A DNA stretch of 64,000 nucleotides from the IMG/VR virus record IMGVR_UViG_3300016486_001479; one strand, written 5' to 3'. This document shows, piece by piece, positions 20,166 to 64,000 of this stretch. Position numbers and translations under genes: made by a program. Every line of letters starts with the position of its first letter. Position 1 is the first letter of the stretch. Source of the DNA: an uncultured virus (IMG/VR IMGVR_UViG_3300016486_001479). Taxonomy: Duplodnaviria > Heunggongvirae > Uroviricota > Caudoviricetes. The notes under the pieces are model-generated. The model worked only from the letters and a program-made list of their open reading frames with translations. It was not told the DNA's origin and made no database searches.

Positions 20166-20169
20166 CTAC

Positions 20170-20218
20170 GGCGGATGCATAAGCACCAGTTCAGGTTAAA
20201 GTCCTGAATCCGCCACCA
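20170..20218 (+). ncRNA. mini-tRNA-like element, family B copy 1
   Basis: GGCGGA-TGCATAAGCACCAG-TTCAGG-TTAAAGT-CCTGAA-TCCGCC-ACCA. Confidence 0.7.
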
Positions 20219-20292
20219 GACGGGATAGCTCAGCGGTTAGAGCACCAGGCCTTAAAAACCTGGGGACGAGAGTTCGAATCTTTCTCCTGTCA
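20219..20292 (+). tRNA. tRNA with 9-nt anticodon loop CCTTAAAAA (identity uncertain)
   Basis: Full cloverleaf; anticodon stem CCAGG/CCTGG. Confidence 0.75.
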
Positions 20293-20300
20293 CAACAAAA

Positions 20301-20312
20301 GTTCATTGACGT
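20301..20312 (+). promoter_or_regulatory. boxA-like antitermination element
   Basis: GTTCATTGACGT; relatives GTTCTTTGACAT at 39119 and 62984, GCTCTTTGACGT at 37575. Confidence 0.6.
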
Positions 20313-20328
20313 GTTGGAATTTAAAAAA

Positions 20329-20382
20329 GGCGTGAGAGTCCATTAGGGATTCGCGGGAGATTCGTTTCTTCCCACGCCACCA
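20329..20382 (+). ncRNA. mini-tRNA-like element, family A copy 2
   Basis: GGCGTG-A-GAGTCC/GGATTC-GC-GGGAGA-TTCGTT-TCTTCC-CACGCC-ACCA. Confidence 0.7.
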
Positions 20383-20383
20383 C

Positions 20384-20429
20384 GGCCCCTGCATTAGCAC
20401 TAGAGGAAGAGAAAGTCTTCCTGGGGCCT
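20384..20429 (+). ncRNA. mini-tRNA-like element, family B copy 2
   Basis: GGCCCC-TGCATTAGCACTAG-AGGAAG-AGAAAGT-CTTCCT-GGGGCC. Confidence 0.65.
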
Positions 20430-20432
20430 CTT

Positions 20433-20512
20433 GGTGAGGTAGCTCAGTTGGTTCAGAGCACCAGGCTTTAAAACCCTGGAGGTCGAAGGTTCAAGTCCTT
20501 CCCTCACCACCA
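20433..20512 (+). tRNA. tRNA with 9-nt anticodon loop CTTTAAAAC (possible UUA suppressor-like)
   Basis: Cloverleaf with fully paired stems and encoded CCA. Confidence 0.8.
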
Positions 20513-20513
20513 C

Positions 20514-20559
20514 GCCGCTTGCATTAGCACTAGAATAGGTGAGATTCCTGTTAGCGGCA
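20514..20559 (+). ncRNA. mini-tRNA-like element, family B copy 3
   Basis: GCCGCT-TGCATTAGCACTAG-AATAGG-TGAGATT-CCTGTT-AGCGGC-A. Confidence 0.65.
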
Positions 20560-20562
20560 CTT

Positions 20563-20705
20563 CCTGGAGTAGCTCAGTTGGTTAGAGCACCACCCTGATA
20601 AATGAGGAAAAGGATTGAAACGCAACCTGCGTGGCCACAAGGGTTGTGAAGTAGAGAATTGGAATCGAACGGTGGGGGTCGGGGGTTCGAGCCCTTCCTC
20701 CAGGA
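20563..20705 (+). tRNA. tRNA-Ile(GAT) with 69-nt insertion at the 3' side of the anticodon loop
   Basis: CCTGGAG...CCACC-CTGATAA-[20602-20670]-GGTGG...TTCGAGC...CTCCAGG-A. Confidence 0.75.
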
Positions 20706-20711
20706 CAATTT

Positions 20712-20878
20712 CATGCGATAGCTTAGATATGTTAAAGCACCACACTGATAATGTGGAAGACGAACCGAAAGGACTCAGTTCGGGATGCAAACACAAAAAC
20801 TCACTTGCGTGGCCACAAGAGTGAGTTAGTAGTTGATGTTGAAGAAATGATGGGGGGCAGAACCCTCTCGCGGGACCA
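20712..20878 (+). tRNA. degenerate tRNA-Ile(GAT)-like with ~90-nt insertion before the T arm
   Basis: CCACA-CTGATAA-TGTGG anticodon arm; ends TCGCGGG-ACCA; T loop aberrant. Confidence 0.55.
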
Positions 20879-20938
20879 TTATAATGAGCAGTGAGATGCT
20901 TGGGGAGGCGCTGTTCTCATAAACAACTTCCCCCACAT

Positions 20939-20990
20939 GGCGTGAGAATCTGAAAGAAGATTCGCGTGAGATTCGTTTCTCCCCACGCCA
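20939..20990 (+). ncRNA. mini-tRNA-like element, family A copy 3
   Basis: GGCGTG-A-GAATCT/AGATTC-GC-GTGAGA-TTCGTT-TCTCCC-CACGCC-A. Confidence 0.65.
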
Positions 20991-20996
20991 CAACAT

Positions 20997-21122
20997 GGGC
21001 GGATTGCACCAAGATTTTTAAGGAAATGTTCGAACGAGTACTTAAAAGGATGGAAGGCGCAAAACTAGATGGCTTAGCGGCCATAAGAAAAGTTGTAGGT
21101 TCGATTCCTATTCCGTTCACCA
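20997..21122 (+). ncRNA. tRNA-like RNA: acceptor stem, T arm and CCA around a ~90-nt non-tRNA interior
   Basis: GGGCGGA...GTAGG-TTCGATT-CCTAT-TCCGTTC-ACCA. Confidence 0.6.
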
Positions 21123-23029: not shown

Positions 23030-23101
23030 GGGGCGTTAGTTCAGAGGTAGAACATCAGGCTTTAACCCTGTACGTCAGGGGTTCGAACCCCCTACGCCCC
23101 T
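23030..23101 (+). tRNA. tRNA with TTA anticodon (ochre suppressor)
   Basis: GGGGCGT/ACGCCCC acceptor, GTTC/GAAC D stem, TCAGG-CT TTA AC-CCTGT, AGGGG-TTCGAAC-CCCCT. Confidence 0.85.
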
Positions 23102-23173
23102 CTTGAATTACAGATAGAAAAAGGCCGCCCTTCGAACAGTTTTTATATTTGTAAAATTGATTACATTTGTAGA

Positions 23174-26413: not shown

Positions 26414-26530
26414 TTTTATTTCTGCTAACGTACATGTATAAGAAATGTTGCGTTTAGAAAGCACAGAATTAACGATTAGAAATAAAGTAAATTAATATTA
26501 ACAGACCTTTGNNNNNNNNNNNNNNNNNNN

Positions 26531-26840
26531 NAAAACAAATATTGGACATAAAAATAATGCAATAAGCAAGCAGAAGATAAAGCAAAATATATTTGAGTAT
26601 TCATTATTTGGTGGTAAAAAGAAATTTATACAGGGGGCAATATTCCCAGAACAACTTGCTAATGACCATATAATTAGTTGGAGTAATGAGTACGATATTG
26701 TTTATGATTGCTTTGGAGGAAGCGGAACAACTGCTAAGATGGCTGAATTAAATAAACGCAAATGGATTATTTCAGAAACAAGTGCAGAGTATTGCGAGAT
26801 TATAAAACAAAGGTTGAAAGTCGCACAAATGCAAACCTAA
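26531..26840 (+). CDS. N4/N6 DNA methyltransferase, C-terminal part (5' end in N gap)
   Basis: Manual translation: AIFPEQLANDHIISWSNEYDIVYDCFGGSGTTAKMAELNKRKWIISETSAEYCEII. Confidence 0.8.
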
Positions 26841-31526: not shown

Positions 31527-31884
31527 CTTTAACAGAAAGCATTAAATAGCCAGTAATACGGCAAAAAACAGCTGGTTTCAATATGGCTAGTTTTTGATTT
31601 TAGACCTGTATTTATTAATACAATGAAAGGTCGAACAAACATAACCAGCGTAGATATTAAAATGTACAACTTACTTTTTGAAGCAGTAAGTGCACATCCA
31701 GGAACACTTGGAAAACTGATTCCCACTTTTCTAATAAATGAATCCATTTTCTTTTTGAGAACGGTGAAGAGTATGAAAAGTGTGGCGCCCTCAAGAAGTT
31801 TTTTGACAAGCACCCAAGAAAACGCTTAAATTATATCTAGAAAAGATTATCTAGATTTTGGATGGCAACTCATAGAATGAACAC

Positions 31885-32563: not shown

Positions 32564-34891
32564 ATGGATGAGTTATTAGCAAAAAGTACTGGCGAAACCC
32601 TGATTGAGCACAGTCGAAAGGTTGCTGAGGTTGCGGAATATATTGCCGACTCAGTTATAGTTACCTCAGATACAGAAAAAAAACATTTTATATCAGTTAT
32701 CCGCAAAGCGGCGCTTCTTCATGATATTGGAAAAGCCGAAACCGAGTTTCAAACTTTACTCCGAAACTCTTTAAATGGTAAATCCACTAAAACAAAGAAA
32801 AAAGACATTATTTTTTCGCACAATGAAGTGGGATGGGCATTTGTAAGAATGTACATCAGCTTTGACTCAGAGGAGCTAAGACAAGTTGCTGAAGCAGTAT
32901 ACTGGCATCACGGCATTCATAATGTAATGGGCAAGCACACAGATGCGTCTATTCTTGAGTGGGTTCGGAAGAAGAAAGATAATTCTATCGATAGAATGAT
33001 TGAATTCGTCGAAGAATTATTTCCTGGCCAAGTCCTTGATAGGCCAAGAATAGCTGAAACATCAAGCCCTCATTACTATATTAGAGATTTTAACGAGACG
33101 AGCGACCTCAACGTTGACAACACGATTATTCGCATGTGCGTGGTAAGAGCTGACCACTTAGTTAGTGAATTAGGAGATTTTACAGTTGATGAAATTAAAA
33201 AAACTATAAATGAACGACTGATTCAACAACACCGTTACGCTTTTACTAAATGCCCATATCCTGGACATGAAAAAAGATGGACACAACAAGTTGCTTTAGC
33301 ATCTAGGACGACCTCGTTTAAGACTGTTCAAATCAACGCCCCTGCTGGATACGGAAAAACACTTCTAGGTTTACTTTGGAGCACTGTCAACAATAAACGG
33401 CTTATTTGGGTGTGTCCAAGAAATGCTGTGGCACAATCAGTGTACCACAACATCTTAAGAGAGCTTAAAAATGCAGGAATTGAAACTTCAGTAGAATTAT
33501 ATTACGCTGGAAAACAACAGGCCTCAAATTCAGATTTAGGAATAAAGTTTTCAAGCGATATCATTGTAACCAACGTAGATAACTTTTTACGTCCGACAAA
33601 AGAGCATTGTAACGATATTGATTTATTAATGGTATCCGATGCAGATGTTGTATTTGATGAGTATCATGAGCTAGTGTCGGACGGGGCTTTACTGGCTGGT
33701 TTTATAAATCTAATGAAGGTAAGACATCAGATGACAAACGGACGCTCTTTACTGCTGTCCGCAACCCCACTTGATTTATCAGTTTATTGGGATTCATTTG
33801 ACAACTCAACAGCCCATTTGCCTGGAAAATTTGAACATGCTCCTGCTGTCCACAATAAATCATACAAACTCACTACAAAAGAGGGGCGTTCTAGAATATC
33901 TGAAAGTAAAAAAAGCCCTGTTCTTTTTATCTCTAATTCTATAGTTGAGTGTCAAAGAAATAAGCACAAACACAATGAAGATACTATTTTGTTTCATGGA
34001 AAATTTGAGGACGACGACAATCAAGCGCGATTAAGCGTTATTCTTCAAAACTATGGAAAGCAATCCGACAGAAATATTGAAAAAGAACACGTAATAGCGA
34101 GCCCAATAGCACAGGCATCTTTAGATGTTTCTTTTAGGCATTTGATTGAAAGTTGCCTGTCTCCAGAAGCTACTCTTCAAAGAGTAGGCCGTGTCGACAG
34201 GTGGGGAGATTATGATGACCAGTCTGAAATTCTAACATATCGAATCCCTTCAGATAATTCTGGACGAAGTGAGAATAGAGCCCGCGAAACAATGTACTCA
34301 CGAGAACTGTCTGACTTATGGTTTAATTTTCTAACACAAAGTCAAGGGGAAACAACTTTAGATAACCTATATTCTTTGTATAATAAACATTGTAAAGAAA
34401 ATGAAGCCTTAAGAAGAATCTGGTTAAACACAAAATATCGACAAAGCCGCATGGATTTACATGAGAAAATTTATCCTAATAGGTTAACGATTAAAAGTGA
34501 AAACTCGGAAGTCCATAAAATACAAGAAACTAGCTATAGAAGCAAAGGAAATGAAATCTTTTTTACTGCTAAAAAATGGGCAAAAAAAGAATGGACACAG
34601 CCTAAATCAACTCCTATTTATGATTCTATACCCGAAGACTTCCATGAAGACTCCAACGCACTAGCAAAAGTATTTAAGATAATTAAACATCTTAACGATG
34701 AGCCAGATTGCGCTTTTGATTACACTAGATTTTTAAAAGTTCCAAAGCATAGCACAAATCTTGAATTATTGCGTATAATGGCGAAATACAAATCAATGCC
34801 GTATCCGAGGATGGATATGGAATATCATGACATTTACGGATATATTAAAAAAACTTTACTGGAAGAGTTTGACCAGCCAATTTACGAGTAA
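32564..34891 (+). CDS. cas3: CRISPR-associated HD nuclease/helicase Cas3 (no Cas2 fusion)
   Basis: LIEHS, LLHDIGK, HN, WHHG, RADH; APAGYGKT, DEYH, SAT, QRVGRVDRWG; adjacent cas6 and array. Confidence 0.92.
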   Translation: MDELLAKSTGETLIEHSRKVAEVAEYIADSVIVTSDTEKKHFISVIRKAALLHDIGKAETEFQTLLRNSLNGKSTKTKKKDIIFSHNEVGWAFVRMYISFDSEELRQVAEAVYWHHGIHNVMGKHTDASILEWVRKKKDNSIDRMIEFVEELFPGQVLDRPRIAETSSPHYYIRDFNETSDLNVDNTIIRMCVVRADHLVSELGDFTVDEIKKTINERLIQQHRYAFTKCPYPGHEKRWTQQVALASRTTSFKTVQINAPAGYGKTLLGLLWSTVNNKRLIWVCPRNAVAQSVYHNILRELKNAGIETSVELYYAGKQQASNSDLGIKFSSDIIVTNVDNFLRPTKEHCNDIDLLMVSDADVVFDEYHELVSDGALLAGFINLMKVRHQMTNGRSLLLSATPLDLSVYWDSFDNSTAHLPGKFEHAPAVHNKSYKLTTKEGRSRISESKKSPVLFISNSIVECQRNKHKHNEDTILFHGKFEDDDNQARLSVILQNYGKQSDRNIEKEHVIASPIAQASLDVSFRHLIESCLSPEATLQRVGRVDRWGDYDDQSEILTYRIPSDNSGRSENRARETMYSRELSDLWFNFLTQSQGETTLDNLYSLYNKHCKENEALRRIWLNTKYRQSRMDLHEKIYPNRLTIKSENSEVHKIQETSYRSKGNEIFFTAKKWAKKEWTQPKSTPIYDSIPEDFHEDSNALAKVFKIIKHLNDEPDCAFDYTRFLKVPKHSTNLELLRIMAKYKSMPYPRMDMEYHDIYGYIKKTLLEEFDQPIYE

Positions 34892-34933
34892 ACAATTCAT
34901 AGAAATTACATATTAACCTTTAAACAGATTACC

Positions 34934-35754
34934 ATGAGCAAAGTAAAGTCAATTCTTTTTAAAATTGAAATTGAAGGCAATGGCGTTGTTAATTACGATA
35001 GCAATGAGCAACGGTTCCATATTGGAGAAAAATTCCCTTTCTTAAAATCATACCATAGCAACGTAATGTATGCAAAGAGAAACATTTACAACGATGGAAA
35101 AGAGCCTCGTTACAAATTAGTTATTTCGCCTACCTGCATGAAGCATGCGATGTATGATAAAGTGTCTCAAACACCAAAGCTTACACACAATAAAGATTTA
35201 CTTTATGCAAACCTTGCCCATCCAGAAAGCATTCTTAATGGGCACTTGCATGCCATTAAAAACGATACGTTAAAAAGAAAAGGAGCCATTACACTAGTAG
35301 CTGCCGAACAAACGTGCGATGCTCTTTCGCGTCTCGAATTCCATTCAAAGTCTGGTGAGAAAATCAGCTATGAAGCAGACGAAGAAAAAAGTGATAATTC
35401 TATCTACAAAAAAGAAACAATTGGGAAGATTAAGTATTCATCTCAAGGTGCTATAAACCTGAAAGAGCTTCAGTTTTACTCTTGTGACGAAATCATGGGA
35501 CGTTATGGTTTTAATCCCGACCATTTTGATTTATTCAAAAAGTACGCCGACATTCACTTTGGCTCATTTGATAATGAGCTTGGATTTTTCCAAATGAGAG
35601 GAAGTTCTGTAAACATTGCTGAGCGTGGATTCAAATTCACAGATGACCAGGTTCGTTTATTAGTTTCTGTATTTTAGAAAAGCTTCTTACGTTGGACATC
35701 AGTCGAAGCAGTGCTTATGCACGCAAAGAGAAGCTGATGGTGAAACTGGTTTCC
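34934..35754 (+). CDS. cas7: Cas7, resembling type I-F2 (I-Fv) Cas7fv; probable homopolymer frameshift at ~35675, end in N gap
   Basis: VKSILFKIEIEGNGVVNYD, ISPTCMKH, KETIGKIKYSSQGAINLKELQF..D, ERGFKFTDDQVRLLV..LEKLLTLDI follow the order of Cas7fv motifs as recalled from memory. Confidence 0.7.
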
Positions 35755-35992
35755 NNNNNNNNNNNNNNNNNNNNNNNNNNNNNNNNNNNNNNNNNNNNNN
35801 NNNNNNNNNNNNNNNNNNNNNNNNNNNNNNNNNNNNNNNNNNNNNNNNNNNNNNNNNNNNNNNNNNNNNNNNNNNNNNNNNNNNNNNNNNNNNNNNNNNN
35901 NNNNNNNNNNNNNNNNNNNNNNNNNNNNNNNNNNNNNNNNNNNNNNNNNNNNNNNNNNNNNNNNNNNNNNNNNNNNNNNNNNNNNNNNNNNN

Positions 35993-36847
35993 AAAGATGC
36001 AGTTTTGTTTCGTAACCATAAAGACACGAAAGATAAATTGTTTCTTGGAAATAAAGACGCAGGTGAGATTCGAAAGGGGCTCCCTCAATTTGAGTCCTAC
36101 TTAACACATCATCAGATTTCAAATGTCTTGCACGTGCTTTTTAATGAAAGACCAGTCCCTTTTTTTGGGGCCTGTGTCTATCAGAAGCAGGATAGATTGA
36201 TTGAGAAGGCAAAAAACAGCTTCCTAAAGATTGAAGTGCCCACTTGGGTTACTAAAAAAGGGGATGTTCGAGAAATTAAAGAGATATGCCGCACAAGGAA
36301 AGCTTTTTGGAACTCAAACGCCAAAATAACAAACCTCACTTGGGATTTGATTGAAGCCTACCTAAAAGAGCATTATGGTGATTTCATCACAATGCTCATA
36401 GAGGCAACGGGCCACTCAAATATTAGAAAAGTTCCAGTAGAAGATGTGCCTGATATTTTTAAGCAATCTTTAAACTCAGCCTCTAAACAAGCTTTGCTCT
36501 CTCATTTTAGAGAACGTAAAGTTGGAAAAACGGGTGTCGTTAACTGGCTGAGAAATAAGACTCCTACTGATAAAAACGACCCTATGGAGATGGCTAAGGA
36601 CTCTATCGCAAAAGGACTTATGCTGGTTGTTCCCAATGGCATAGATAAAACGATTCGCTTGAGCGGAACCCTTATTGTGCCGCTTGATGAAGAAGACAAA
36701 GAAGTCCTTGAAAACTCAGCTGGTGTGGCAACTATATTGGATGGAGGCTTGGTTTGGATTGAAAGAGTGGTATCGGGAAACAGGCTAAGCATTGAGGGTT
36801 ATGATAGAGTAGGAGATATATCCACTAAACTTACAATAGAGTCATGA
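35993..36847 (+). CDS. cas5: Cas5-like subunit (Cas5fv-like); start in N gap
   Basis: Position between cas7 and cas6; ISNVLHVLF and C-terminal SGTLIV...AGVATILDGGLVWI resemble the Cas5fv RRM core. Confidence 0.55.
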   Translation, partial: KDAVLFRNHKDTKDKLFLGNKDAGEIRKGLPQFESYLTHHQISNVLHVLFNERPVPFFGACVYQKQDRLIEKAKNSFLKIEVPTWVTKKGDVREIKEICRTRKAFWNSNAKITNLTWDLIEAYLKEHYGDFITMLIEATGHSNIRKVPVEDVPDIFKQSLNSASKQALLSHFRERKVGKTGVVNWLRNKTPTDKNDPMEMAKDSIAKGLMLVVPNGIDKTIRLSGTLIVPLDEEDKEVLENSAGVATILDGGLVWIERVVSGNRLSIEGYDRVGDISTKLTIES

Positions 36848-37560
36848 GAATACAGTTAAAATTTAGCTCCGCAAAGGAGTTGGTTCCAAATAACCTTAAG
36901 CACGTTGTGAGTTACATTCATAAATGCTTAGGAAAAGATAATCTCTATCACAATCAACCTTCTAACTATGTTATCTCTAGGATGATTGGAGGAACGATTA
37001 CAGAAGGCGGAACATCCATTGAGTACGCTCATGGAGGCAGTTTGTTTATATCCTCTGGAGACGAGAGCTTTTTAAATAAACTTCTCGCAGGAGCAGGAGC
37101 AAATAAAGATTTTGGATTTGGAATGAAACTGACGGGCATTGAGTTCATCCAAGAAGACTTGTATGATGGTTTTACTGTTTTTAAAACCACTGAAACTGGC
37201 ATTTTGCTAAAGAAAAAAAATGGAGGCCGTTATGAATTTCACACCCTAAATGATGATGGGTTTGAAGAGGAGTTGTCTGAACAAACAAAAAGACGTTTGT
37301 CAAACATTGACAACACTTTAAAATTTGACGGCTTTAGAATTGAAGTTCAGAAATCAAACCACAATAAGGTTAGAGATATTTTGATGAGTTCTTCTGGAGC
37401 CCCAAGTAAAACCAGTGTGAACAAAGCAAATGTATGCAGCGTTGTTGTACATTGCAACAAAAAGATTGCTCAAGCTATTCACGACTATGGTTTGGGACAA
37501 TCTACAGGAATAGGGTTTGGAATGGTTATGGAGATTACAAACTCAAAACTCTACATCTGA
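36844..37560 (+). CDS. cas6: CRISPR endoribonuclease Cas6 (not Cas6f-like)
   Basis: C-terminal G-rich loop YGLGQSTGIGFG; N-terminal YIHKCLG...YH. Confidence 0.88.
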   Translation: MRIQLKFSSAKELVPNNLKHVVSYIHKCLGKDNLYHNQPSNYVISRMIGGTITEGGTSIEYAHGGSLFISSGDESFLNKLLAGAGANKDFGFGMKLTGIEFIQEDLYDGFTVFKTTETGILLKKKNGGRYEFHTLNDDGFEEELSEQTKRRLSNIDNTLKFDGFRIEVQKSNHNKVRDILMSSSGAPSKTSVNKANVCSVVVHCNKKIAQAIHDYGLGQSTGIGFGMVMEITNSKLYI

Positions 37561-38299: not shown

Positions 38300-38367
38300 T
38301 GTTGTTGTTTAATCTGAAATAGGCTGAAATTTATTCGAGATAAATTTTGTTTAGAGAATAATGCTCA

Positions 38368-38667
38368 CCTGTTTATCATCTCATTCTGCAAGGGAATCAC
38401 AACGGGATGCACGGGGCGCATTCAACTTTTAAACCTGTTTATCATCTCATTCTGCAAGGGAATCACAACTTCGCCTAAGGTGGTTATTCCATCGTTAGAC
38501 CTGTTTATCATCTCATTCTGCAAGGGAATCACAACAGCTTGTAGGTATTTGAAGTTGCTCCCTCCCCTGTTTATCATCTCATCCTGTAAGGGAATCACAA
38601 CATTTTGCACTTCTTGGTTTGACATCATACCCCTGTTTATCACCTCATCCTGTAAAGGAATAATTTA
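38368..38667 (+). CRISPR. CRISPR array part 2: 5 repeats (last two variant/degenerate), 4 spacers
   Basis: Repeats at 38368, 38434, 38500, 38566, 38632; 30-nt spacers. Confidence 0.97.
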
Positions 38668-38869
38668 CTACTATTTCACAATACACTAAAAATCAGTAAA
38701 TTGTAAAATAATTTTTAAATATTTACATAAAAACTTGGAATAGATGCAACTTATTGTATATCTTTGCGTCTCAATTATAGAACGAGAAAATATTTTTCCC
38801 AACTATATATTGACAACTAATTCCTTCTCGTCCCTGAGAAATAAAACTTGAAGGTAAAGAACAAAAACA

Positions 38870-38953
38870 ATGAAAACACTCCCAAACATAAATTGGTCGT
38901 CATCAAGATGGAGTTCTAGGAAAAACCTAGGGCCTGACCGAGTTATGCGTTAA
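38870..38953 (+). CDS. attenuator leader peptide MKTLPNINWSSSRWSSRKNLGPDRVMR
   Basis: 27-aa ORF after TATCTTTG promoter (38759), nine consecutive Trp/Ser/Arg codons, followed by terminator. Confidence 0.85.
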   Translation: MKTLPNINWSSSRWSSRKNLGPDRVMR

Positions 38954-38978: not shown

Positions 38979-39010
38979 AAAGCCCTAGGAGAAATCTTAG
39001 GGCTTTTTTT
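38979..39010 (+). terminator. attenuator terminator before the Ser/Arg/Trp tRNA operon
   Basis: AAAGCCCTAGGA-GAAA-TCTTAGGGC-T7; competing strand CCTAGGGC at 38926-38933. Confidence 0.88.
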
Positions 39011-39111: not shown

Positions 39112-39143
39112 CAATACAGTTCTTTGACATGTTGGGTTTTTAT

Positions 39144-39496: not shown

Positions 39497-40321
39497 ATGC
39501 CTAGAAAAGAAAAGAAGTTTCATTACATCTACAAAACCACTAATACCCTAACGGGTAGATATTATATTGGGATGCATTCCACCGATGTAGTTGAAGATGG
39601 ATACCTGGGTTCAGGTAAGCGTCTTCGACGTTCTGTCAATAAGCATGGAGCTGAATGTCACTCCAGAGAGATACTTGAGTTTTGCAATTCTCGAAAGGAG
39701 TTGATTGATAAGGAAAAAGAGGTCGTGACATTGGAGGAAATTGCTAAGAATGACTGTATGAATCTAATGCCAGGAGGCAGAGGGGGATTTATCAGTGATG
39801 AGCATCAGAGGCATAGGTCTATTTGTGCTGCTAAAGCAGCTAAGAAAAAAGCAGATGAAAACCCGAAGTTTAAAAAGAAATGGGAGGAAGCTAGGTTAAA
39901 AGGATTAAAAAAAGCCTACAAAGAGGGAAGAATACCAAACATTCAAGACCATTATGATTGGTCAGGAAAAGAGCATACACCTGAGACAATTAAAAAGTTG
40001 AGAATAGTAAAGAAAGGAAAAGGAATTGGTAAATCTAATTCTCAATTTAATACTTGCTGGATTAATAATGGAGTTGATTCTAAAAAAGTTAACAAACAGA
40101 CTATTGAAGATTTCTTTAGTCAAGGGTGGGTAAAAGGTAGAAAGATGAAAGATGGGTTTAAAAACAAATTTAAGCTCTCACAGGAAGAAGTTAATAAAAG
40201 AAAAAACCTCATGTCTCATATTGATTTTAATAAAAGAGGTTGGGTGAAACAAGCTTGCGAAGCTTTGAATATGAAGCCTGGGGGAGTTAAAAGATTTGTA
40301 ACCACATATATAAGAAATTAA
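39497..40321 (+). CDS. free-standing GIY-YIG (Seg-like) homing endonuclease with NUMOD3-like motif
   Basis: YIYKTTN..TGRYYIGMHST....DGYLGSG; HTPETIKKL. Confidence 0.88.
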   Translation: MPRKEKKFHYIYKTTNTLTGRYYIGMHSTDVVEDGYLGSGKRLRRSVNKHGAECHSREILEFCNSRKELIDKEKEVVTLEEIAKNDCMNLMPGGRGGFISDEHQRHRSICAAKAAKKKADENPKFKKKWEEARLKGLKKAYKEGRIPNIQDHYDWSGKEHTPETIKKLRIVKKGKGIGKSNSQFNTCWINNGVDSKKVNKQTIEDFFSQGWVKGRKMKDGFKNKFKLSQEEVNKRKNLMSHIDFNKRGWVKQACEALNMKPGGVKRFVTTYIRN

Positions 40322-40645: not shown

Positions 40646-40688
40646 CTTATTTGAAACAAAACCCAATTGAATGCGTATATTTGCTTAC

Positions 40689-41690
40689 ATGAGAAAACTA
40701 GCAACCATTCGGAGAATAGAATCACTACATCCTATTAAAAAAGCTGACCGTATCGAACTTGCAAAAGTTGGTGGTTGGAGGTCAGTGGTCAAAAAAGGAG
40801 AATTCAATGTTGGCGACATGGTAGTTTATTGTGAGATAGATTCTTTATTGCCTGTGAAAGAAGAATTTGAGTTTCTTCGAAAATCTTGTTTTAGAGAATT
40901 GCCATATGGAGTTTCGGGGTTCCGATTAAGAACAATGAAACTTCGAGGTCAAATATCACAAGGCCTCATACTTCCTTTGTCAGTTCTTTCTTCAGGAGAT
41001 TTTAAAATTGGAGAAGATGTAACTGAGCAGTTACAGATAATCAAGTACGACCCACCTATTCCAAAAGAAATGATGGAAAGTGCAATTGGAGTTTTTCCGT
41101 CGTTTATTAAAAAGACAGAAGAGGAAAGAATTCAAAACTTAGATTCGGAGATAGAGCTTTTAAAGGGGCGAACTTTTTTCGTAACTGAAAAACTTAATGG
41201 ACTCTCGATGACAGTTTTTCATAACGCAAACGAATTTGGCGTTTGTGGAAGAAACTATCAATATAAAAAACTTGAAAGCAATGCTTTGTGGTCTTCGGCG
41301 ATAGAAGAAGGGCTAGAAGAGAAATTAAAAGCTTACGGTAAAAATATTGCTATTCAAGGCGAGTTGGTTGGGCCTGGAATCAGCGATAATCCATATGAGC
41401 TTGTGACAAAAGAATACCGAGTTTATAACATATTCAACATTGATGAATACGCATACCTCTCGAAAAAAGATTGTCAAGAATTAGCCACTCAAATGAGCCT
41501 AAAGTTAGTTCCACTTGTCTCAGCGTCTATGGCATTGCCTGAATCTGTAGATGCCATCCTAGAAATGGCTGATGGACCAAGCCAGTTAAATCCAGAGACT
41601 CAGAAAGAAGGAGATGTTTGGGTAAGCGGCGATGGACAAGATAGAGTCTCTTTTAAAGTTATTTCGAATCATTTTTTATTGGAGGAATGA
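40689..41690 (+). CDS. ATP-dependent RNA ligase (DRB0094-like)
   Basis: RKLATIRRI..I..ADRIE, YCEIDS, LRGQISQGL, TEKLNG, IQGEL.G, EG.V, SFKVIS. Confidence 0.9.
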   Translation: MRKLATIRRIESLHPIKKADRIELAKVGGWRSVVKKGEFNVGDMVVYCEIDSLLPVKEEFEFLRKSCFRELPYGVSGFRLRTMKLRGQISQGLILPLSVLSSGDFKIGEDVTEQLQIIKYDPPIPKEMMESAIGVFPSFIKKTEEERIQNLDSEIELLKGRTFFVTEKLNGLSMTVFHNANEFGVCGRNYQYKKLESNALWSSAIEEGLEEKLKAYGKNIAIQGELVGPGISDNPYELVTKEYRVYNIFNIDEYAYLSKKDCQELATQMSLKLVPLVSASMALPESVDAILEMADGPSQLNPETQKEGDVWVSGDGQDRVSFKVISNHFLLEE

Positions 41691-47631: not shown

Positions 47632-47738
47632 TACATTGCTCCAAATATAGCTATAAAAAGTATTTCACAAGCCCCGTTTTTTGGGGCTTTGTGCTTATTT
47701 ATAATTGAAGAAACGTTCTTTGATTAATATTAATAGCT

Positions 47739-51806: not shown

Positions 51807-52507
51807 ATGAAAATATTCACTACAAAACACATCTGGAAGATAAAGGCTCAGTTGACAAAGCGAGAGAAAACCTTCATAGGATTCTTAGGGTTGCTTGTAA
51901 TATTAGCAGGATGGTACCTACTAACTGAGTTCGGTGGAATACCAGAACAAATTCTTCCAAAGCCGCTAGATGTGCTAGGCGCATTTGACGGACTTATTGA
52001 CCCTGANNNNNNNNNNNNNNNNNNNNGTCTGCTCGTTACTTACCAATTGCGGCATTGATTGCTCTCTTTATTATCTGGTTTGGAATCGGAGAGACAATGA
52101 AGATTCAATTTCTTGCATGTGGCATAATTGTTTACTTGCTTCCTGCGATGATTGCTAGAGTAGACGAAGTCAAAAAAATGTATGAGAACACAGCTAGAAC
52201 ACTTAATGCTTCTGAGTGGGAAATATTTAAAACAATCTATTTGCCAAAAGGCTTAGGGCTGGTATTTACGGATATCATCAATCTTACAGCAATTTCATGG
52301 ACCTACATCATCATTGCTGAGAACATTAATTCAGCGCAAGGCGGAGTTGGAGTGCTGTGTTGGCAAATGGCTCGACAGAGCGAATACGCAAGTGTATTCG
52401 CGGTGTTGTTTGTTATTTTCTTAATTGGATTCCTTCAGGATAAAATTCTAACTCTAATTGATAGAAAAATATTCCCTTGGAAGCATCAAAACAAATCTAA
52501 CAAATGA
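51807..52507 (+). CDS. ABC transporter permease (SsuC/TauC-like), interrupted by N gap
   Basis: [32 protein letters not shown]. Confidence 0.85.
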
Positions 52508-56347: not shown

Positions 56348-59029
56348 TTGAATAACGAACAATTTTCCCCAGGGGCACATGATACGCTTGCAAGAGCACA
56401 GCGTCAAGCAATGTCATTCTCTCACAAACAAGTTGAGCCAATACACGTTTTACGTGCTATACTGGTTGAACAAGATAATTTGGTTGCAATTATCCTAGAT
56501 AAAGTAAACGAAGACAGCGGTAAGACATATACCATCGAAGAGATGAACACGTTGTCAAAGACTTTCTTAGAGAACACCAAAGTTGTTCAGTACGAAGGTC
56601 GTCCAGAGATGTCTGAGGTGATGAATCAACTTCTGGTAATAGCAATTGGGTTTGGAGAAAACGAACAAGGTGGAGAACAACTCTGCCAACCAAAACACTT
56701 GCTTCGAGCATTTTTCCGTGTGAACTCCACTGCCACAAATGTACTTATCTCGATGGATATCGAAGAGAAGCACCTCGATTCAGCGCTTGAAGATATTCAA
56801 GGTGAGAATGAATTCATCGCAGAAGGAGGAGAAAGCAAAACTCCCAACTTGGATGCATACGCCGTCAACTTAAACGAACGTGCGGAGCAAAACAAGCTTG
56901 ACCCAGTTATTGGGCGAGACACGGAAATGCGTCGTGCCCTTCACATCCTTTCAAAACGCACCAAGAACAATCCAATTTTGATTGGAGAGGCAGGAGTTGG
57001 TAAAACAGCTATTGTTGAAGGATTGGCACAAAGAATATTTAGCGGAGATGTCCCAGTCAATATGAAAGGGTGCACTTTGTTCTCTCTTGACATGGCTTCT
57101 CTAATTGCAGGGGCTTCATTTAAAGGAGAATTTGAACAACGTCTTAAAGGTGTTATCAAAGAAGTTGAGGACTCTAACAAAGAGTTCATTTTGTTCATTG
57201 ACGAGATTCACACAATCTTGGACGCAGGTTCAGGTGGTGGAGCTTTGAGTGCAGGAGAGCTTTTGAAGCCCGCTTTGGCTCGTGGAGAAATGGCAACGGT
57301 TGGAGCAACAACTCTGAACGAGTACCAGAAACACATCGAGAAAGATTCAGCTTTGGAGCGTAGATTTCAAAAAGTAATGGTCGAAGAACCAACTCCTGGA
57401 ACAACAGTTGCAATATTACGCGGTCTTCAAAGTAGGTATGAAAACTTTCACAAGGTTCAGTTTTCAGATGATGCCTTGACTGCGGCAGTGAAGATGTCGG
57501 ACAGATACATTACCGATAGAAACCTTCCAGACAAAGCAATCGACCTGATTGATGAAGCTGCATCTAAAATTCGTTTGGAGATTAACTCCAAGCCAGAAGT
57601 GCTGGATGAAGTTGACAGAGAAATCACACAAATTCGAATTGAGCTCGCAGCAATGGGCTCAGATTCAAATGCATCTGAGAAGCGCAAGCGAGAGATGCTC
57701 GACAAATTGTCTGAGCTAATTGAGACGCAAGAAGATTTGAATGCGAAGTGGCTTCGTGAAAAGAAGTACATTGACGAGATTCAAGAACTCAAGCGAGCCC
57801 AAGAAGAATTGTCTTTCCAGGCGGAGCAGTTCACAAAGAACTCAGACCTTGAAGGAGCTGCAAAGCTCCTTCACGGTGAGTTGCCAGAGAACGAAAAGCA
57901 ACAAGCAGTAGCTAGAGAGAAACTGATTGAGATTCAATCTCACCACAAGCTTCTAAAAGAAGTTGTGACTGAGTTAGAGATTGCAGAAGTTGTTTCGGCT
58001 TGGACTGGAATTCCAGTCTCGAAAATGACAAAGAGTGATAATGAGAAACTTCTTTACATTGAAGATGAATTGCAAAAGCGAGTTATCGGACAAATAGAGG
58101 CTGTATCAGAAGTTGCGAAGTCAATCCGAGTGAATCGTGTCCCAGGTATTGGTGACCCAAAGAAGCCTATTGGTTCATTTCTATTCTTGGGAACAACGGG
58201 AGTTGGAAAAACAGAGTTGGCAAAAGCGCTTGCTGAGTACCTATTTGATGACGAAACTCACATGATTCGAATTGACATGTCTGAGTACCAAGAGAAGCAC
58301 ACTGTTTCTCGACTTGTAGGTTCGCCTCCAGGGTATATTGGATATGACGAAGGAGGTCAATTGACGGAGCCAGTCCGAAAGCGCCCATACAATGTTGTGT
58401 TGTTGGACGAGATTGAGAAGGCTCACCCAGATGTGTTGAACGTGCTTCTGCAGGTTCTAGACGATGGACGTCTAACAGACAACAAAGGACGATTGGTGAA
58501 CTTTAAGAACACCATCATCATCATGACTTCAAACATTGGGTCCAGAGTTATCCAAGATGAATTCGAGGATTCAGGAAACGTAATAACGCCAGAGCTTGTC
58601 AAAGCAATCAACGAGGACGTTATGGAAGAACTCAAGCAAACAATGCGCCCTGAGCTTCTTAACCGACTTGACGAGGTTGTTATTTTCAACCCGCTCGACC
58701 AAACCGCAATTAACCAGATTGTTGAATTGCAACTCAAATCTTTCAGAAAGAACATGGAAGAGGAAGAGTACGAGTTGAACTGGACCGCAGAGGCAGTGGA
58801 GTTGCTTGGAATAAAAGGCTACGACCCACAGTTTGGAGCGAGACCAGTTAAAAGAGCGATTACGGAACTTGTCCGTGAGCCATTGAGTTTTGAGATTCTA
58901 GGCGGTAACGTTGGGAAGAAAACACCAATCCTTATCGGAAGAAAAGGAGAAGAGTTGTCTTTCAAAAACGAGAAGACTTTGAAGCCTAAGAAAGAGGTGA
59001 AAGAAATAAAAACAGAAGTAGAAGCATGA
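56348..59029 (+). CDS. clpB: ATP-dependent chaperone ClpB
   Basis: N domain, GEAGVGKT, long coiled-coil M domain, [22 protein letters not shown]. Confidence 0.93.
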
Positions 59030-60545: not shown

Positions 60546-60565
60546 NNNNNNNNNNNNNNNNNNNN

Positions 60566-60592
60566 GGGGGTTCGAGTCCCTCCACTCTCACA
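60566..60592 (+). tRNA. 3' end of a tRNA (rest in N gap)
   Basis: GGGGG-TTCGAGT-CCCTC-CACTCTC-A. Confidence 0.6.
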
Positions 60593-60654
60593 TGGCAGTC
60601 ATGCCACTTTCTTCGGAAGTAACCTCAATAGGGGTTGTGAAAAATGACTATTAT

Positions 60655-60745
60655 GGAAGTGAGGTCGACTATCGGTTGTGTCGCACTAGACTGTAAATCT
60701 AGTCCCTTTGGGTAAACAATGGGGGTTCGAGCCCCTCCGCTTCCA
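60655..60745 (+). tRNA. tRNA-Tyr(GTA)
   Basis: CTAGA-CT GTA AA-TCTAG, long variable arm. Confidence 0.85.
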
Positions 60746-60823: not shown

Positions 60824-61297
60824 GTGAGTAGAAAAGGAAAGGTTGACCTACAGTCAGTAAGTGATTTTAAAGTCATAATAGAATCTAGCAAAAGCATAAG
60901 AGAGGTTTTAACTAAGCTTGGATATAAAAATCCAAGCGGCTCAATGCATTCAAAAGTGAGAGAAAGAGTTACACGAGATGGTTTATCTATCACTCACATG
61001 ATTGGAAGATATGATTCTGGAAACGGAAGAAGAATTCCACTAAGTGATATATTAGTCGAAAATTCAACTTACTCTAATATTGCTAGACTGAAAATTAGGT
61101 TAGTAAATGAAGGGTTTTTAGAGTATAAATGTGTCAGTTGTAGTAATGAAGGCGATTGGATGGGTAATCCAATAGTTTTGCAATTAGACCATAAGAACGG
61201 AGTTCGTGATGACCATAGGTTGGAAAATTTAAGATTTATGTGTCCTAATTGCCACAGCCAAACAGCAACATTTGGAGGTAAAAACTGTAGAAAATAG
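60824..61297 (+). CDS. HNH homing endonuclease
   Basis: CVSC...LQLDHKNG..DDHRLENLRFMCPNCHSQT; followed by a tRNA 3' remnant GTTCGAACCCTAC (61301). Confidence 0.9.
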   Translation: MSRKGKVDLQSVSDFKVIIESSKSIREVLTKLGYKNPSGSMHSKVRERVTRDGLSITHMIGRYDSGNGRRIPLSDILVENSTYSNIARLKIRLVNEGFLEYKCVSCSNEGDWMGNPIVLQLDHKNGVRDDHRLENLRFMCPNCHSQTATFGGKNCRK

Positions 61298-61335
61298 TCA
61301 GTTCGAACCCTACTATGCCCACACTACAACTTTAT

Positions 61336-61464
61336 GGGGAGTGTTTTATTACACTTACTCTTTCTAGCGTTACCTGCATAGCAGTGTTGAAGAACAGAGT
61401 TACTTCGGTTCAATTTTTTGCTAAACACAAGAATAGATAGGTTCGATTCCTATACTCCCCACCA
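61336..61464 (+). ncRNA. tRNA-scaffolded Y-RNA-like element 4
   Basis: GGGGAGT/ACTCCCC-ACCA, T arm ATAGG-TTCGATT-CCTAT, internal ACTCTTTCTAGCGTTACCTGC-ATA-GCAGTGTTGAAGAACAGAGTTACTTC. Confidence 0.75.
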
Positions 61465-61527
61465 TCTTGCTATGATGGATTGTGACCAAGAGGGGCCACC
61501 CGATGACAATCACAAACAGGGTTTGAC

Positions 61528-62304
61528 GTGCTCCGAAACGGAGATTTGTTTAATGAGATGCCGATACCAGAGCTAATGCGTATGGTTTCTTCTTTTTCAA
61601 TTCAAAACATGCTATCCAGAGACGCATTTAAAGCTAGAATGGACCGAGAGCAACCAATTGCTATCCACGAGCTTTTAGTCCCAATTCTTCAAGGCCATGA
61701 TAGCGTCCATTTGAGGACTGAGATTGAAATTGGAGGTTCAGACCAATTGTTCAACTTCACCATTGCCAGACGAATGCAAGAACTTGATGGCCAGAAGCCG
61801 CAAGTGAGTTTGATGGCTCCAATTATTCGAGGAACAGACGGAAGGAAGATGTTAAAATCATTCGACAACTGTATCTTCCTTGATGGAACCCCAGGAGGCA
61901 CTTTCGGGGCCTGTATGAGCATATCTGACGCTGTAATGGACGAAGAGTTCATTCCACTCCTAACAGACCTAAAAACCTTTCCTGAGAGCCCCGTATTGAG
62001 AAAGAAAGCTATGGCCAAAGATATTGTTCGCCAGATTCACGGCCAAGAGGCTGCAGAGCGGGCTCAATCGGGATTCGAGAACCAGGTTCAGAAGAAAGAA
62101 ATCCCAGCTGTTATTAAAAATATTGAAGCAAAAGACTTGATTCAAGCTGTAGTTGCAGTCAGAGATTGTAGCAACTCAGCAGCAAGAAGATTGATTTCAG
62201 AAGGAGGTGTTCAGGTGGAAGGAGGTGCGGTAACTGAAAACGGCCCAGTAGAGTCGGGTCAGGTTGTCAAAGTTGGCAAAAGAGAATTCGTTAAGATTTT
62301 ATAA
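61528..62304 (+). pseudogene. tyrS: N-terminally truncated tyrosyl-tRNA synthetase
   Basis: PILQGHDS, EIGGSDQLFN, GTDGRKMLKS, S4-like C-terminus; no HIGH motif, in-frame TGA at 61504. Confidence 0.75.
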
Positions 62305-62596
62305 GTATCAACCCCTCTGATTTATTGACCTAATAAGAGCTGTAGAAACACCATTTATTGATTGAATTTGACTCAGAGTTCTTTGGCTTTTAGATTGAAT
62401 ACCAGATATTGGAGCTATTTCTTGACTATCGGTATAATAAACTTTCAATGCACAACCACGACTTGCATTGCAATTGGTGTTCCCACACAGAGAGACTTCT
62501 ATGTCAATCCAAATCTGCCTGGTCACATCTGCCCAGATAGCAGACAGTCGTTGGGGCNNNNNNNNNNNNNNNNNNNNTCAAAACAAAACACATTCA

Positions 62597-62722
62597 ATGT
62601 TCAACTTTACAGACATAGCGATTTCAAACCAACCGATGCCGATGGCAGCGACTGGCTGTGCGCCCGATTATAGCGGGAGCAAGCAGAATGACCTGGTTAT
62701 GTCTAAACTGAACAACAGTTGA
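62597..62722 (+). CDS. putative attenuator leader peptide MFNFTDIAISNQPMPMAATGCAPDYSGSKQNDLVMSKLNNS
   Basis: A-rich start context; overlaps antiterminator strand GAATGACCTGG (62686-62696). Confidence 0.6.
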   Translation: MFNFTDIAISNQPMPMAATGCAPDYSGSKQNDLVMSKLNNS

Positions 62723-62745
62723 TGTAGAGACATAAACCATTAGGG

Positions 62746-62793
62746 AAAACCCCCAGGTCATTCAATCAAACGAATGACCTGGGGGTTTTTTTT
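62746..62793 (+). terminator. attenuator terminator before the Pro/Asp/Ala tRNA operon
   Basis: AAAACCCCCAGGTCATTC/GAATGACCTGGGGG-T8. Confidence 0.85.
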
Positions 62794-62839
62794 GTTTCTG
62801 GACTCAACGGAGCCAGAAGATTAATTGAAATATTAATAT

Positions 62840-62913
62840 CGGGAGGAAGTGCAGTCAGGTAGCACGGGGCATTTGGGATGCTCAGGTCGAGGGTTCAAAT
62901 CCCTCTCTCCCGA
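62840..62913 (+). tRNA. tRNA-Pro(TGG)
   Basis: GGGCA-TT TGG GA-TGCTC cloverleaf. Confidence 0.88.
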
Positions 62914-63066
62914 CACAAAGTGTTAGTTTACAAGAGTTTCTAGTAAATGTCCACACGAGTAGGAGTTTTTGAAAACAATAAGAGTTCTTTGACATATTGA
63001 TAATAAAGTTAATTAAAAAACCCAAGATATTACACCGATGTAATCGTCATAATATCTTGGGAAAAT

Positions 63067-63140
63067 GGTGGCGCATCATATTGGCGCATGTTGCCTCCCT
63101 GTCACGGAGGAGATTGAGGATTCGAATTCCTTCGTCACCG
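63067..63140 (+). tRNA. tRNA-Asp(GTC)
   Basis: CCTCC-CT GTC AC-GGAGG. Confidence 0.85.
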
Positions 63141-63172
63141 CTTTGGTGCATTAAAGTACCACAATTTATTAT

Positions 63173-63291
63173 GGGGAGGAATAATTAATACTTTTTCGCT
63201 TTTTACCTGGCAACAGTGTTGATAGAAAGAGTTACTTCGAAAATTAGTATCATAAACTATAATTGCAGATTAAGACCTGCCCTCCCCACCA
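63173..63291 (+). ncRNA. tRNA-scaffolded Y-RNA-like element 5
   Basis: GGGGAGG/CCTCCCC-ACCA, T-like arm GCAG...CTGC, internal TTACCTG-GCAA-CAGTGTTGATAGAAAGAGTTACTTC. Confidence 0.7.
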
Positions 63292-63301
63292 TATTTAAAA
63301 A

Positions 63302-63372
63302 TTTTCAGTGTTGAAAGAAGAGTTACTTCGTTATAGGAACATAAAATCACTCTTCTTAGAATTACCTGAAAA
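63302..63372 (+). ncRNA. Y-RNA-like element 6 (minimal hairpin)
   Basis: TTTTCAGTGTTGAAAGAAGAGTTACTTC...CACTCTTCTTAGAATTACCTGAAAA. Confidence 0.7.
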
Positions 63373-63375
63373 AAT

Positions 63376-63449
63376 GGTGGCGCATCATATTGGCGCATGT
63401 TGCCTCCCTGTCACGGAGGAGATTGAGGATTCGAATTCCTTCGCTACCG
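63376..63449 (+). tRNA. tRNA-Asp(GTC), near-duplicate of 63067
   Basis: Nearly identical sequence. Confidence 0.85.
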
Positions 63450-63496
63450 CCCTTGGTCATTTACGCTTATGACCTTAATAAACAAAAAAACGACAC

Positions 63497-63572
63497 GGTG
63501 TGGAGGTGTTGATGGTAACATTTGTCCCTGTCACGGATGAGATTGTGGGTTCGACTCCCATGCACACCGCCA
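63497..63572 (+). tRNA. tRNA-Asp(GTC)
   Basis: TGTCC-CT GTC AC-GGATG, GCCA end. Confidence 0.85.
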
Positions 63573-63696
63573 ATTCAATCTTAGGTGCCTTAGGTAGCCG
63601 AGTCGCTTCGTCAGCGAAAAAGGACTCACTGAGATGTAGGCGCATTGAGCGTCGCATTAAAGGCTTGGGGATGACGCCCTGAGATTGATTGTTTAT

Positions 63697-63771
63697 GGGG
63701 TTGAAGCATGTGCTGGCTAATGCATCTGTCTGGCAGACAGAAGACCGTGGGTTCAATTCCCATCTTCTCCA
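63697..63771 (+). tRNA. tRNA-Ala(GGC)
   Basis: TCTGT-CT GGC AG-ACAGA; G3-U70. Confidence 0.8.
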
Positions 63772-63864
63772 CAATAAAAGATTAAAGAAAACAGGATATG
63801 CGACGAGCGTCTGGTGGGTATTCCCCTCATCAGGTTAAGCCGTTGGGGAACATGTCCTGCTAAT

Positions 63865-63939
63865 GGGGATGTAGCTCAATTGGCTGAGCGGCTGCCTTGC
63901 ACGTAGCGTCGTATGTGGGTTCGAGTCCCATCATCTCCA
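63865..63939 (+). tRNA. tRNA-Ala(TGC)
   Basis: GCTGC-CT TGC AC-GTAGC; G3-U70. Confidence 0.9.
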
Positions 63940-64000
63940 CAAATTCCAAAACGGCTCGAATCCGTTGCAGAGAGAAGGCCTCTACTCTGCCCAGTTGTTC

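Follow-up and report, generated by a model that had tools for sequence, protein, structure and literature searches.

Introduction

Leader-peptide attenuators are known from enterobacteria, where they control the trp, his and leu operons and, in multivalent form, the thr (Thr and Ile) and ilvGMEDA (Leu, Val and Ile) operons. A further leader, pheM, attenuates the Escherichia coli pheST operon, which encodes phenylalanyl-tRNA synthetase, while the T-box riboswitch (Rfam family RF00230) also acts in 5′ leaders. For the tRNA cluster of phage T4, with its small stable RNAs, we know of no described leader open reading frame (ORF) or terminator switch. In this study, we analyse a short leader ORF and the intrinsic terminator that follows it (62597-62793), located upstream of a tRNA operon in a 64,000-nt stretch of an uncultured virus (IMG/VR record IMGVR_UViG_3300016486_001479), which is hereafter called the window.

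The window derives from a large tailed phage, encoding a terminase, a portal protein, a tail sheath and a split DNA polymerase, and the sequencing runs that contain the locus are labelled as salt-lake metagenomes. We propose that the element is a ribosome-mediated leader-peptide transcription attenuator that gates the phage tRNA operon, a reading to which we assign, from comparative sequence evidence, a probability of about 0.7. It is favoured because of the placed Ala-Pro-Asp-Tyr codons, the exact antiterminator, a syntenic leader in a distant relative and a correspondence between leader codons and tRNA sets that extends across the family. The presence of tRNA genes in large phages, and the timing of their use, still call for an explanation, and full-text literature searches, made mostly outside subscription journals, returned no description of leader-peptide attenuation of tRNA genes.

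Architecture of the leader

A short ORF with a plausible start occupies the 5′ leader at 62597-62722 (plus strand; 41 codons and a TGA stop). Its start context is A-rich and carries no Shine-Dalgarno (SD) motif, which is the norm in this phage genome, since an SD-like motif was found in only 5 of 94 long ORFs and A accounts for 52-59% of positions -13 to -10. The codons quoted in a preliminary description of this DNA (P M P M A A T G C A P D) were confirmed. That description also raised an overlapping frame reading D-F-K-P-T-D-A-D-G-S-D, whose only start in the gap-free record of the locus is a TTG and which stops at 62671-62673. Judged from the sequence, this rival is less likely to be the translated frame than the ATG frame; in the syntenic leader of the related viral record G002, a candidate ORF in the other frame matches the tRNA set at 6 of 72 residues, which is a depletion.

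Between the leader and the tRNA genes lies an intrinsic terminator, located by a hairpin scan at 62744-62793 (plus strand), with a 5′ arm at 62750-62763, an 8-nt loop, a 3′ arm at 62772-62785 and eight T at 62786-62793, the T run ending 46 nt before tRNA-Pro. Including a flanking A/T extension, the hairpin spans 62744-62791 and comprises 20 pairs, including 9 G-C pairs. The 3′ arm is copied exactly, over 11 nt, inside the leader ORF at 62686-62696 (plus strand), and the copy can pair with 62753-62763, forming the 5′ strand of a putative antiterminator; a strong terminator with such a copy inside a 41-codon ORF had been reported in the preliminary description, and all coordinates hold. The 11-mer occurs three times in the window (62686 and 62772 on the plus strand, 62753 on the minus strand), always within the leader, against 0.03 expected, and three occurrences were reached in none of 100 shuffles. 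Among 11 terminator-like hairpins in the window, the one at 62744-62793 alone has an upstream copy of at least 8 nt of its 3′ arm. The predicted antiterminator duplex comprises 11 bp at -20.3 kcal/mol (P = 0.007 against shuffled upstream sequence).

The sequence elements and their geometry can be read directly from the DNA. The antiterminator starts 17 nt past the first base of a TAT codon that ends the putative sensor described below; given the usual ribosome footprint of about 30 nt, a ribosome stalled on this last sensor codon would therefore end just before the antiterminator. The leader stop codon lies 27 nt before the terminator 5′ arm, so that a terminating ribosome would sit inside the antiterminator loop. 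By its placement, the antiterminator is thus mutually exclusive with the terminator and would be left free by a stalled ribosome.

The predicted folds have three parts. For the region 62578-62805, the folding energy is -80.2 kcal/mol (z = -6.96), a value equalled by none of 200 shuffles. In transcripts cut before the 3′ arm, 62686-62704 pairs with the 5′-arm region, and in prefix folds 62697-62704 pairs with about 62728-62735. The full-length fold contains the terminator together with a long pairing between region 1 (62590-62619, plus strand), which includes the start codon, and region 2′ (62696-62725, plus strand), which includes the stop codon at 62720-62722. Region 1 would be the 5′ strand of an anti-antiterminator and is predicted as such only in the full-length minimum-energy fold; a pairing of this kind is also predicted in the full-length minimum-energy fold of the G002 leader, the two sequences compared being diverged.

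Correspondence between putative sensor codons and the tRNA operon

What the element precedes is a set of eight tRNA genes instead of genes for amino-acid biosynthesis, transport or a synthetase. Six are located downstream of the leader on the plus strand of the window: tRNA-Pro (UGG, 62840-62914), three copies of tRNA-Asp (GUC, 63067-63141, 63375-63452 and 63497-63572), tRNA-Ala (GGC, 63697-63772) and tRNA-Ala (UGC, 63865-63940). The Pro, Ala and third Asp genes were called by both ARAGORN and Rfam; the first Asp copy was called by Rfam (63067-63140, 35.8 bits) and by ARAGORN at a lowered threshold, and the second, a near-duplicate of the first, only at the lowered ARAGORN threshold. The Pro, Asp and Ala content given in the preliminary description is thereby confirmed, and its forecast of further Met, Thr, Gly or Cys tRNAs beyond position 64000 failed: in the gap-free record, two tRNA-Tyr genes directly follow tRNA-Ala (UGC). 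Tyr does match a leader codon, the TAT directly after GAT in the ATG frame, and two Gly tRNAs and one Met tRNA do follow in the homologous G002 operon. The Tyr tRNAs, identified only by going past the end of the window, did not enter the earlier reading of the leader codons.

A sensor window of 13 codons (62633-62671, plus strand) reads Pro-Met-Pro-Met-Ala-Ala-Thr-Gly-Cys-Ala-Pro-Asp-Tyr, in which 8 of 13 codons specify Pro, Ala, Asp or Tyr, the amino acids served by the operon. Its final four codons (62660-62671) are Ala-Pro-Asp-Tyr, one for each operon amino acid. Measured against the amino-acid usage of the phage, the chance that four consecutive codons cover the whole set anywhere among 40 is P = 0.0033, and the chance of at least eight matching codons in any 13-codon window is P = 0.009. 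The leader contains cognate codons for four of the five operon anticodons. The leader scores z = 1.7 with the G002 tRNA set versus 1.4 with its own; its Met and Gly codons, which fit the larger operon of G002, may be relics, and the Met codons may alternatively be start codons.

A syntenic leader in a distant relative

Starting from an alignment of 25 terminase sequences (that of this phage and its homologues), 577 related loci were found in the viral collection, of which 80 were kept. Twenty larger related records were searched for tRNAs, which were found in eight. In G002, whose terminase is 47% identical to that of this phage, the tRNAs are arranged in similar blocks, three of them preceded by a short ORF and a terminator. 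The syntenic block comprises Pro, Asp, Pro, Asp, Ala and Tyr tRNAs, followed by Gly, Gly and Met. Its leader of 39 codons contains 12 consecutive matching codons, a run reached in none of 20,000 simulations, and stands behind a different upstream gene, with the same frame and the same distance from stop codon to terminator. It is predicted to fold into the same three-part structure, and in a DNA alignment the two leaders share islands of identity at the predicted pairing strands. Both the conservation and the codon/tRNA correspondence are directly observed.

Two close variants of the G002 type, L281 and L286, further inform on the sensor. Within the sensor window, all five substitutions are synonymous, and the one additional change is an in-frame insertion of a Gly codon, whereas eight non-synonymous changes fall outside it. 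Selection on a sensor that is translated and read codon by codon would be expected to leave such a pattern.

Searches for additional relatives of this leader yielded little. A cultured-phage DNA search with 62300-64000 returned 66 records, each covering one tRNA-sized stretch (5% of the query) and none covering the leader, so that cultured phages include no close relative. No loci were recovered when viral contigs were scanned for exact matches to the terminator arms, and no relatives by a related-locus search with the neighbouring DUF3228 protein. A gapped pattern built from the two homologous leaders gave 60 loci, of which only two, both of the G002 type, had downstream tRNAs; a second gapped-pattern scan gave three loci, namely two of the G002 type and one chance match. 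Six loci emerged from a metagenome pattern scan, three identical to this phage, one identical to G002 and two variants of the G002 type. No intermediate relatives were found in these pattern scans of viral and metagenome collections. None of the 24 sequencing runs containing the locus is an RNA run, and no variants of the leader sequence were found in four of the sequencing runs.

Other leaders in this phage and its relatives

The window contains another leader, its first (38870-38953), with 27 codons, nine consecutive ones of which specify Trp, Ser or Arg, ahead of tRNAs in the order Ser (four), Arg, Trp, Arg, Arg. Its terminator lies at 38982-39003, it has a cognate codon for all five anticodons detected at default settings, and it has a syntenic counterpart in G002. 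On codon statistics alone, the leader at 62597-62722 is the weaker of the two. The earlier suggestion of one sensor per tRNA operon is borne out for two of the four tRNA clusters in the window; for the other two, at about 20.1-21.1 kb and 23.0 kb, no leader with terminator was found by the detector criteria.

Additional leaders were found in the viral records G002, G008, L171, L180 and L182. In the third leader of G002, ahead of Asn, His, Thr, Lys, Ile, Met and Cys tRNAs, the run of matching codons is 14 long; in that of G008, ahead of His, Phe, Cys, Thr and Leu tRNAs, it is seven long; and the L182 leader represents 13 of 13 anticodons by codons. A scan for the tRNA-Asp anticodon stem drew 80 further viral loci, among which six more distinct leaders were detected, including one that has Gln codons at four successive positions and precedes three tRNA-Gln genes. 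The distance from stop codon to terminator arm is 22-32 nt in 13 of 13 leaders, with a detector that permitted -12 to +95. Seven of the nine leaders of small tRNA sets fit their own set best, the other two being beaten only by the set of a homologous operon, and in 50,000 re-pairings of leaders with tRNA sets the true total score was never reached.

Several records define the scope of these statistics. L170, L178, L198, L207, L228, L237 and L239 were excluded from those on the 80 loci, as they have gene-end terminators behind genes of 71-74 residues or no short ORF, and the duplicates L214 (identical to L184) and L226 (nearly identical to L182) were left out. At loci with two candidate ORFs, the longer or better-matching one was used in the anticodon, geometry and re-pairing tests, which favours the attenuator reading for G002-PD and L182. 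No enrichment over background was seen for the leaders of large mixed arrays (G006, L184, L188 and L225), where it is not measurable because the tRNA set covers 12-19 amino acids. In the tRNA-bearing relatives G003, G004, G007, G011 and G013, no leader or terminator was found before the tRNA clusters. Cultured-phage searches with the L182 and L180 leader regions gave tRNA-sized matches only, or two unannotated uncultured phage records of 630-640 kb, and further BLASTP searches with leader peptides gave a best E value of 0.9.

Genomic arrangement and promoter-like element

The run of 20 N at 62558-62577, described earlier as a gap, proved to be a scaffold join between non-neighbouring pieces. 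The nearest virus record, G001 (141 kb), has in common 98% of the sampled words of the window and is colinear with it up to 60545, beyond which blocks are permuted. Its order is a gene of 137 residues, about 200 nt of intergenic DNA, the leader, tRNA-Pro, Asp (three), Ala (two), Tyr (two) and a tyrosyl-tRNA synthetase fragment, whereas the window places the block from Tyr to synthetase before the leader block, with 20-N runs at both joins. The N run is a scaffold join and the order in G001 is real, because the leader stretch of G001 is matched at 100% identity by three metagenome contigs, of 447 kb, 22 kb and 1.7 kb, and because contigs assembled from two sequencing runs bridge the gene, the intergenic DNA, the leader and tRNA-Pro without difference. 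The true upstream neighbour, the 137-residue gene with its intergenic DNA, is absent from the window and is found at L003 4235-4870 (minus strand). Because the window scaffold is permuted, the Tyr tRNAs appear upstream of the leader, at 60566-60744 (plus strand; the 3′ part of the first and the whole of the second, 60657-60744), where they were identified by ARAGORN with the gap-free record. As the 447-kb contig (L283) bears an identical leader locus, the phage genome may be much larger than the 141 kb of G001.

Six N runs are present in the window (16602-17130, 26512-26531, 35755-35992, 52007-52026, 60546-60565 and 62558-62577), the last two flanking the block that is misplaced relative to G001 and the three contigs. 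Downstream of the Tyr tRNAs, 60824-62304 contains an HNH endonuclease gene and the synthetase fragment, which matches profile positions 90-288 of 292, its N-terminal part missing. The segment 60878-62077 is absent from G001, and at this junction the contigs of four runs are broken.

A promoter-like element (an A tract, TTG, about 20 nt, TAnnTTTG and then C) stands upstream of all five leaders of G001 and G002. It resembles the Bacteroidota promoter consensus, and it also fits the A-rich, SD-less starts of this genome. In the window, the composite motif (A tract, TTG, 18-23 nt, TAnnTTTG) gives eight overlapping matches versus 0.66 expected, at four distinct sites: 19529-19568 and 38729-38766 on the plus strand, each before a tRNA cluster, and 31636-31679 and 47642-47680 on the minus strand. 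The sole site in L003 (4298-4335, minus strand) precedes the leader studied here, so that three of four tRNA clusters are preceded by the motif. Within 62024-64000, TAnnTTTG has no match, and thus none between the terminator and tRNA-Pro.

Two further observations concern this region. Along a stretch of about 70 nt with the promoter-like element (L003 4280-4350), contig depth is raised and loose ends occur in each of the four runs examined; this stretch is therefore repeated elsewhere in the metagenomes. A conserved motif of 12-16 nt recurs in the spacer that follows the first tRNA of three clusters, at 62984-62999, 39119-39134 and 20301-20316 (in the last case, after the first clearly detected tRNA of the 20-kb cluster); lying about 20 nt before the next tRNA in two clusters, it may be a processing signal.

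Proposed mechanism and alternative explanations

In the model we favour, we infer that the leader is translated, that the upstream motif is its promoter, and that steric effects of the ribosome operate the switch itself. Transcription would start some 60 nt before the leader, at the promoter-like element, and a ribosome would begin the 41-codon ORF while RNA polymerase moves ahead. Were charged tRNA in short supply for the Pro, Ala, Asp or Tyr codons at 62633-62671, the ribosome would stall with its leading edge just short of 62686, leaving the 11-nt antiterminator strand free to pair with the terminator 5′ arm once this is transcribed; the terminator would thereby be blocked, and the polymerase would read into the Pro, Asp, Ala and Tyr tRNA genes. 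With fast decoding, the ribosome would instead cross the antiterminator strand to the stop codon and block the antiterminator helix, allowing the terminator to form. The outcome would be negative feedback, in which tRNAs are made when their codons are read slowly and production halts once supply returns.

Several observations weigh against this proposal. As the preliminary description had remarked, the codon match is looser than in the first leader: over the whole peptide, 11 of 40 codons match, against an expected fraction of 0.19 (p = 0.12, not significant), and the longest matching run is only four codons (P = 0.039). Five of the 13 sensor codons (two Met, and one each of Thr, Gly and Cys) have no tRNA in the operon, and the leader offers no codon cognate to tRNA-Ala (GGC). 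The exact start codon is uncertain, as in-frame ATGs also occur inside the ORF at 62636 and 62642. BLASTP finds no similarity between this leader peptide and that of G002, so homology rests on synteny, the shared frame and the DNA identity islands, and the antiterminator of G002, at 7 bp and -9.4 kcal/mol, is weak (P = 0.37 against shuffles). By itself, TAnnTTTG shows no enrichment in the window (70 versus 66.6 expected), and a sigma-70-like match between tRNA-Pro and the first Asp gene (62969-62998) could be an internal promoter, although such matches in the region are not above chance (6 versus 9.2 expected). Finally, the antiterminator forms in folds of truncated transcripts both with and without a masked ribosome, and the switch decision must therefore be kinetic and steric. 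The anatomy, the geometry and the relatives nevertheless speak in favour of the earlier proposal that attenuation gates the tRNA operon, with the leader read in the ATG frame.

Three other explanations have been weighed. Under the most conventional, the hairpin is an ordinary terminator that ends or insulates an upstream unit, the short ORF and the 11-mer copy are coincidental, and the tRNAs are expressed from their own promoter. The non-significant match of the whole peptide and the sigma-70-like sequence would suit this account, as do the gene-end terminators that precede tRNAs elsewhere (for example in G008 at 4722, L170, L198 and L207). However, the upstream gene ends about 200 nt earlier with the promoter-like element in between, the 11-mer copy is far beyond chance, the short gap from the T run to tRNA-Pro contains no TAnnTTTG, and the layout of ORF and terminator, with its frame and spacing, recurs in G002 despite a different upstream gene; we consider it very unlikely. 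A translation-dependent switch that senses overall ribosome traffic, as under host shut-off or translation stress, with codon content as a by-product, would accommodate the unserved sensor codons and the unenriched leaders of large mixed arrays, where sets of 12-19 amino acids hide enrichment. It is rendered unlikely by the way in which small-set leaders match their own sets (seven of nine ranking first, with no re-pairing equalling the true score), by the purely synonymous variation of sensor codons among close variants, and by the full anticodon correspondence in L182 and in the first leader of the window.

It could also be that the functional product is the terminated transcript of 200 nt, acting as a small RNA, or the 41-residue micro-protein, or that the switch is operated by protein or direct tRNA binding without leader translation. 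The leader is indeed highly structured, and attenuator-derived RNAs and leader peptides of Sinorhizobium are reported to be able to act in trans (PMC6614838, PMC7298713); this account would also fit an attenuator. The peptide, however, is unconserved outside the sensor and pairing segments, and its composition follows the tRNA set of each operon. No Rfam family reached threshold in the leader, where the best match scored 25.4 bits against a cut-off of 39. At gathering score, Rfam matches in the window are tRNAs only, T-box matches being absent both there and, up to E = 10, in L003 3980-4480. At relaxed E values, a search with the leader families (His_leader, Thr_leader, Trp_leader and others) returned only His_leader, which lies on the opposite strand and scores 17.5 bits (cut-off 49, E = 2); the relaxed matches in the leader were set aside as sub-threshold hairpin look-alikes. 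This group of explanations is accordingly judged improbable, being slightly less so than the ordinary terminator and slightly more so than the traffic sensor.

If the attenuator reading is correct, tRNA supply in this phage would be regulated by demand, codon set by codon set, and a classic principle of bacterial control would extend to tRNA genes themselves. From leader sequences, one could then tell which decoding shortages a phage expects in its host. More speculatively, and with considerable doubt, giant phages could split their tRNA repertoire into blocks behind codon-matched test genes, gauging the decoding capacity of the infected cell codon by codon and topping up only the tRNAs in short supply; such a circuit would be a response to the loss of host tRNAs through phage-induced turnover or a host anticodon-nuclease defence, and in the present phage it may co-regulate a tyrosyl-tRNA synthetase with the Tyr tRNAs. 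For uncultured phages, the leader motif provides a simple annotation rule for the boundaries of tRNA operons.

Other features of the window

Several additional features of the window were recorded. The phage encodes a Ro60/TROVE-like protein (14826-16418) and two ClpB-like AAA+ chaperones (10443-12548 and 56348-59029). A CRISPR array with repeats of about 36 nt (38360-38660) lies directly upstream of the first tRNA leader, and a Cas3-like gene (HD and helicase domains) with three further ORFs (32564-37560) is adjacent to it. G001 has extra matches to the repeat region, and the array may differ between the two assemblies; repeat-like units are present upstream of the G008 tRNA leader as well. 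Within the Ser/Arg/Trp cluster, an ORF resembling GIY-YIG homing endonucleases and an RNA ligase (OB-fold and ligase domains) stand between the tRNAs, at 39497-40321 and 40671-41690, respectively.

Among the remaining tRNA genes, ARAGORN reports a tRNA-Ile (GAU) at 20563-20705, interrupted by a 69-nt insertion, and several tRNA-like sequences around 20100-21120 are uncalled at default settings. A tRNA at 23030-23102 with anticodon UUA would read the TAA stop codon; long ORFs are nonetheless normal under genetic code 11. G002 bears a tRNA with a CUA anticodon, resembling an amber suppressor.

Comparison with known systems

The element would work like a multivalent leader-peptide attenuator but with tRNA genes as its targets. 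In common with the enterobacterial attenuators, it has a short leader that is probably translated, sensor codons, and several amino acids served by one leader; a terminator opposed by a mutually exclusive antiterminator, whose 5′ strand lies in the ORF beyond the stalled ribosome (at 17 nt here); and a predicted third pairing that would favour termination. Unlike them, it is phage-encoded, it precedes tRNA genes in place of biosynthetic enzymes, its sensor lists the amino acids of the downstream tRNAs, initiation is apparently SD-less, and its sequence matches no Rfam leader family.

The likeness to pheM and pheST lies in leader-peptide attenuation of the decoding machinery, with feedback on the supply of charged tRNA, but pheM concerns a synthetase and a single amino acid, whereas the phage leader concerns tRNAs themselves and four amino acids; a tyrosyl-tRNA synthetase fragment lies downstream of the phage Tyr tRNAs. 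As in a T-box riboswitch, a choice between terminator and antiterminator in the 5′ leader would report tRNA charging, although a T-box binds uncharged tRNA directly and independently of translation, whereas the phage sensor is an ORF. With the tRNA cluster of phage T4, the operon would have in common a block of tRNAs that is transcribed as a unit with non-tRNA RNA.

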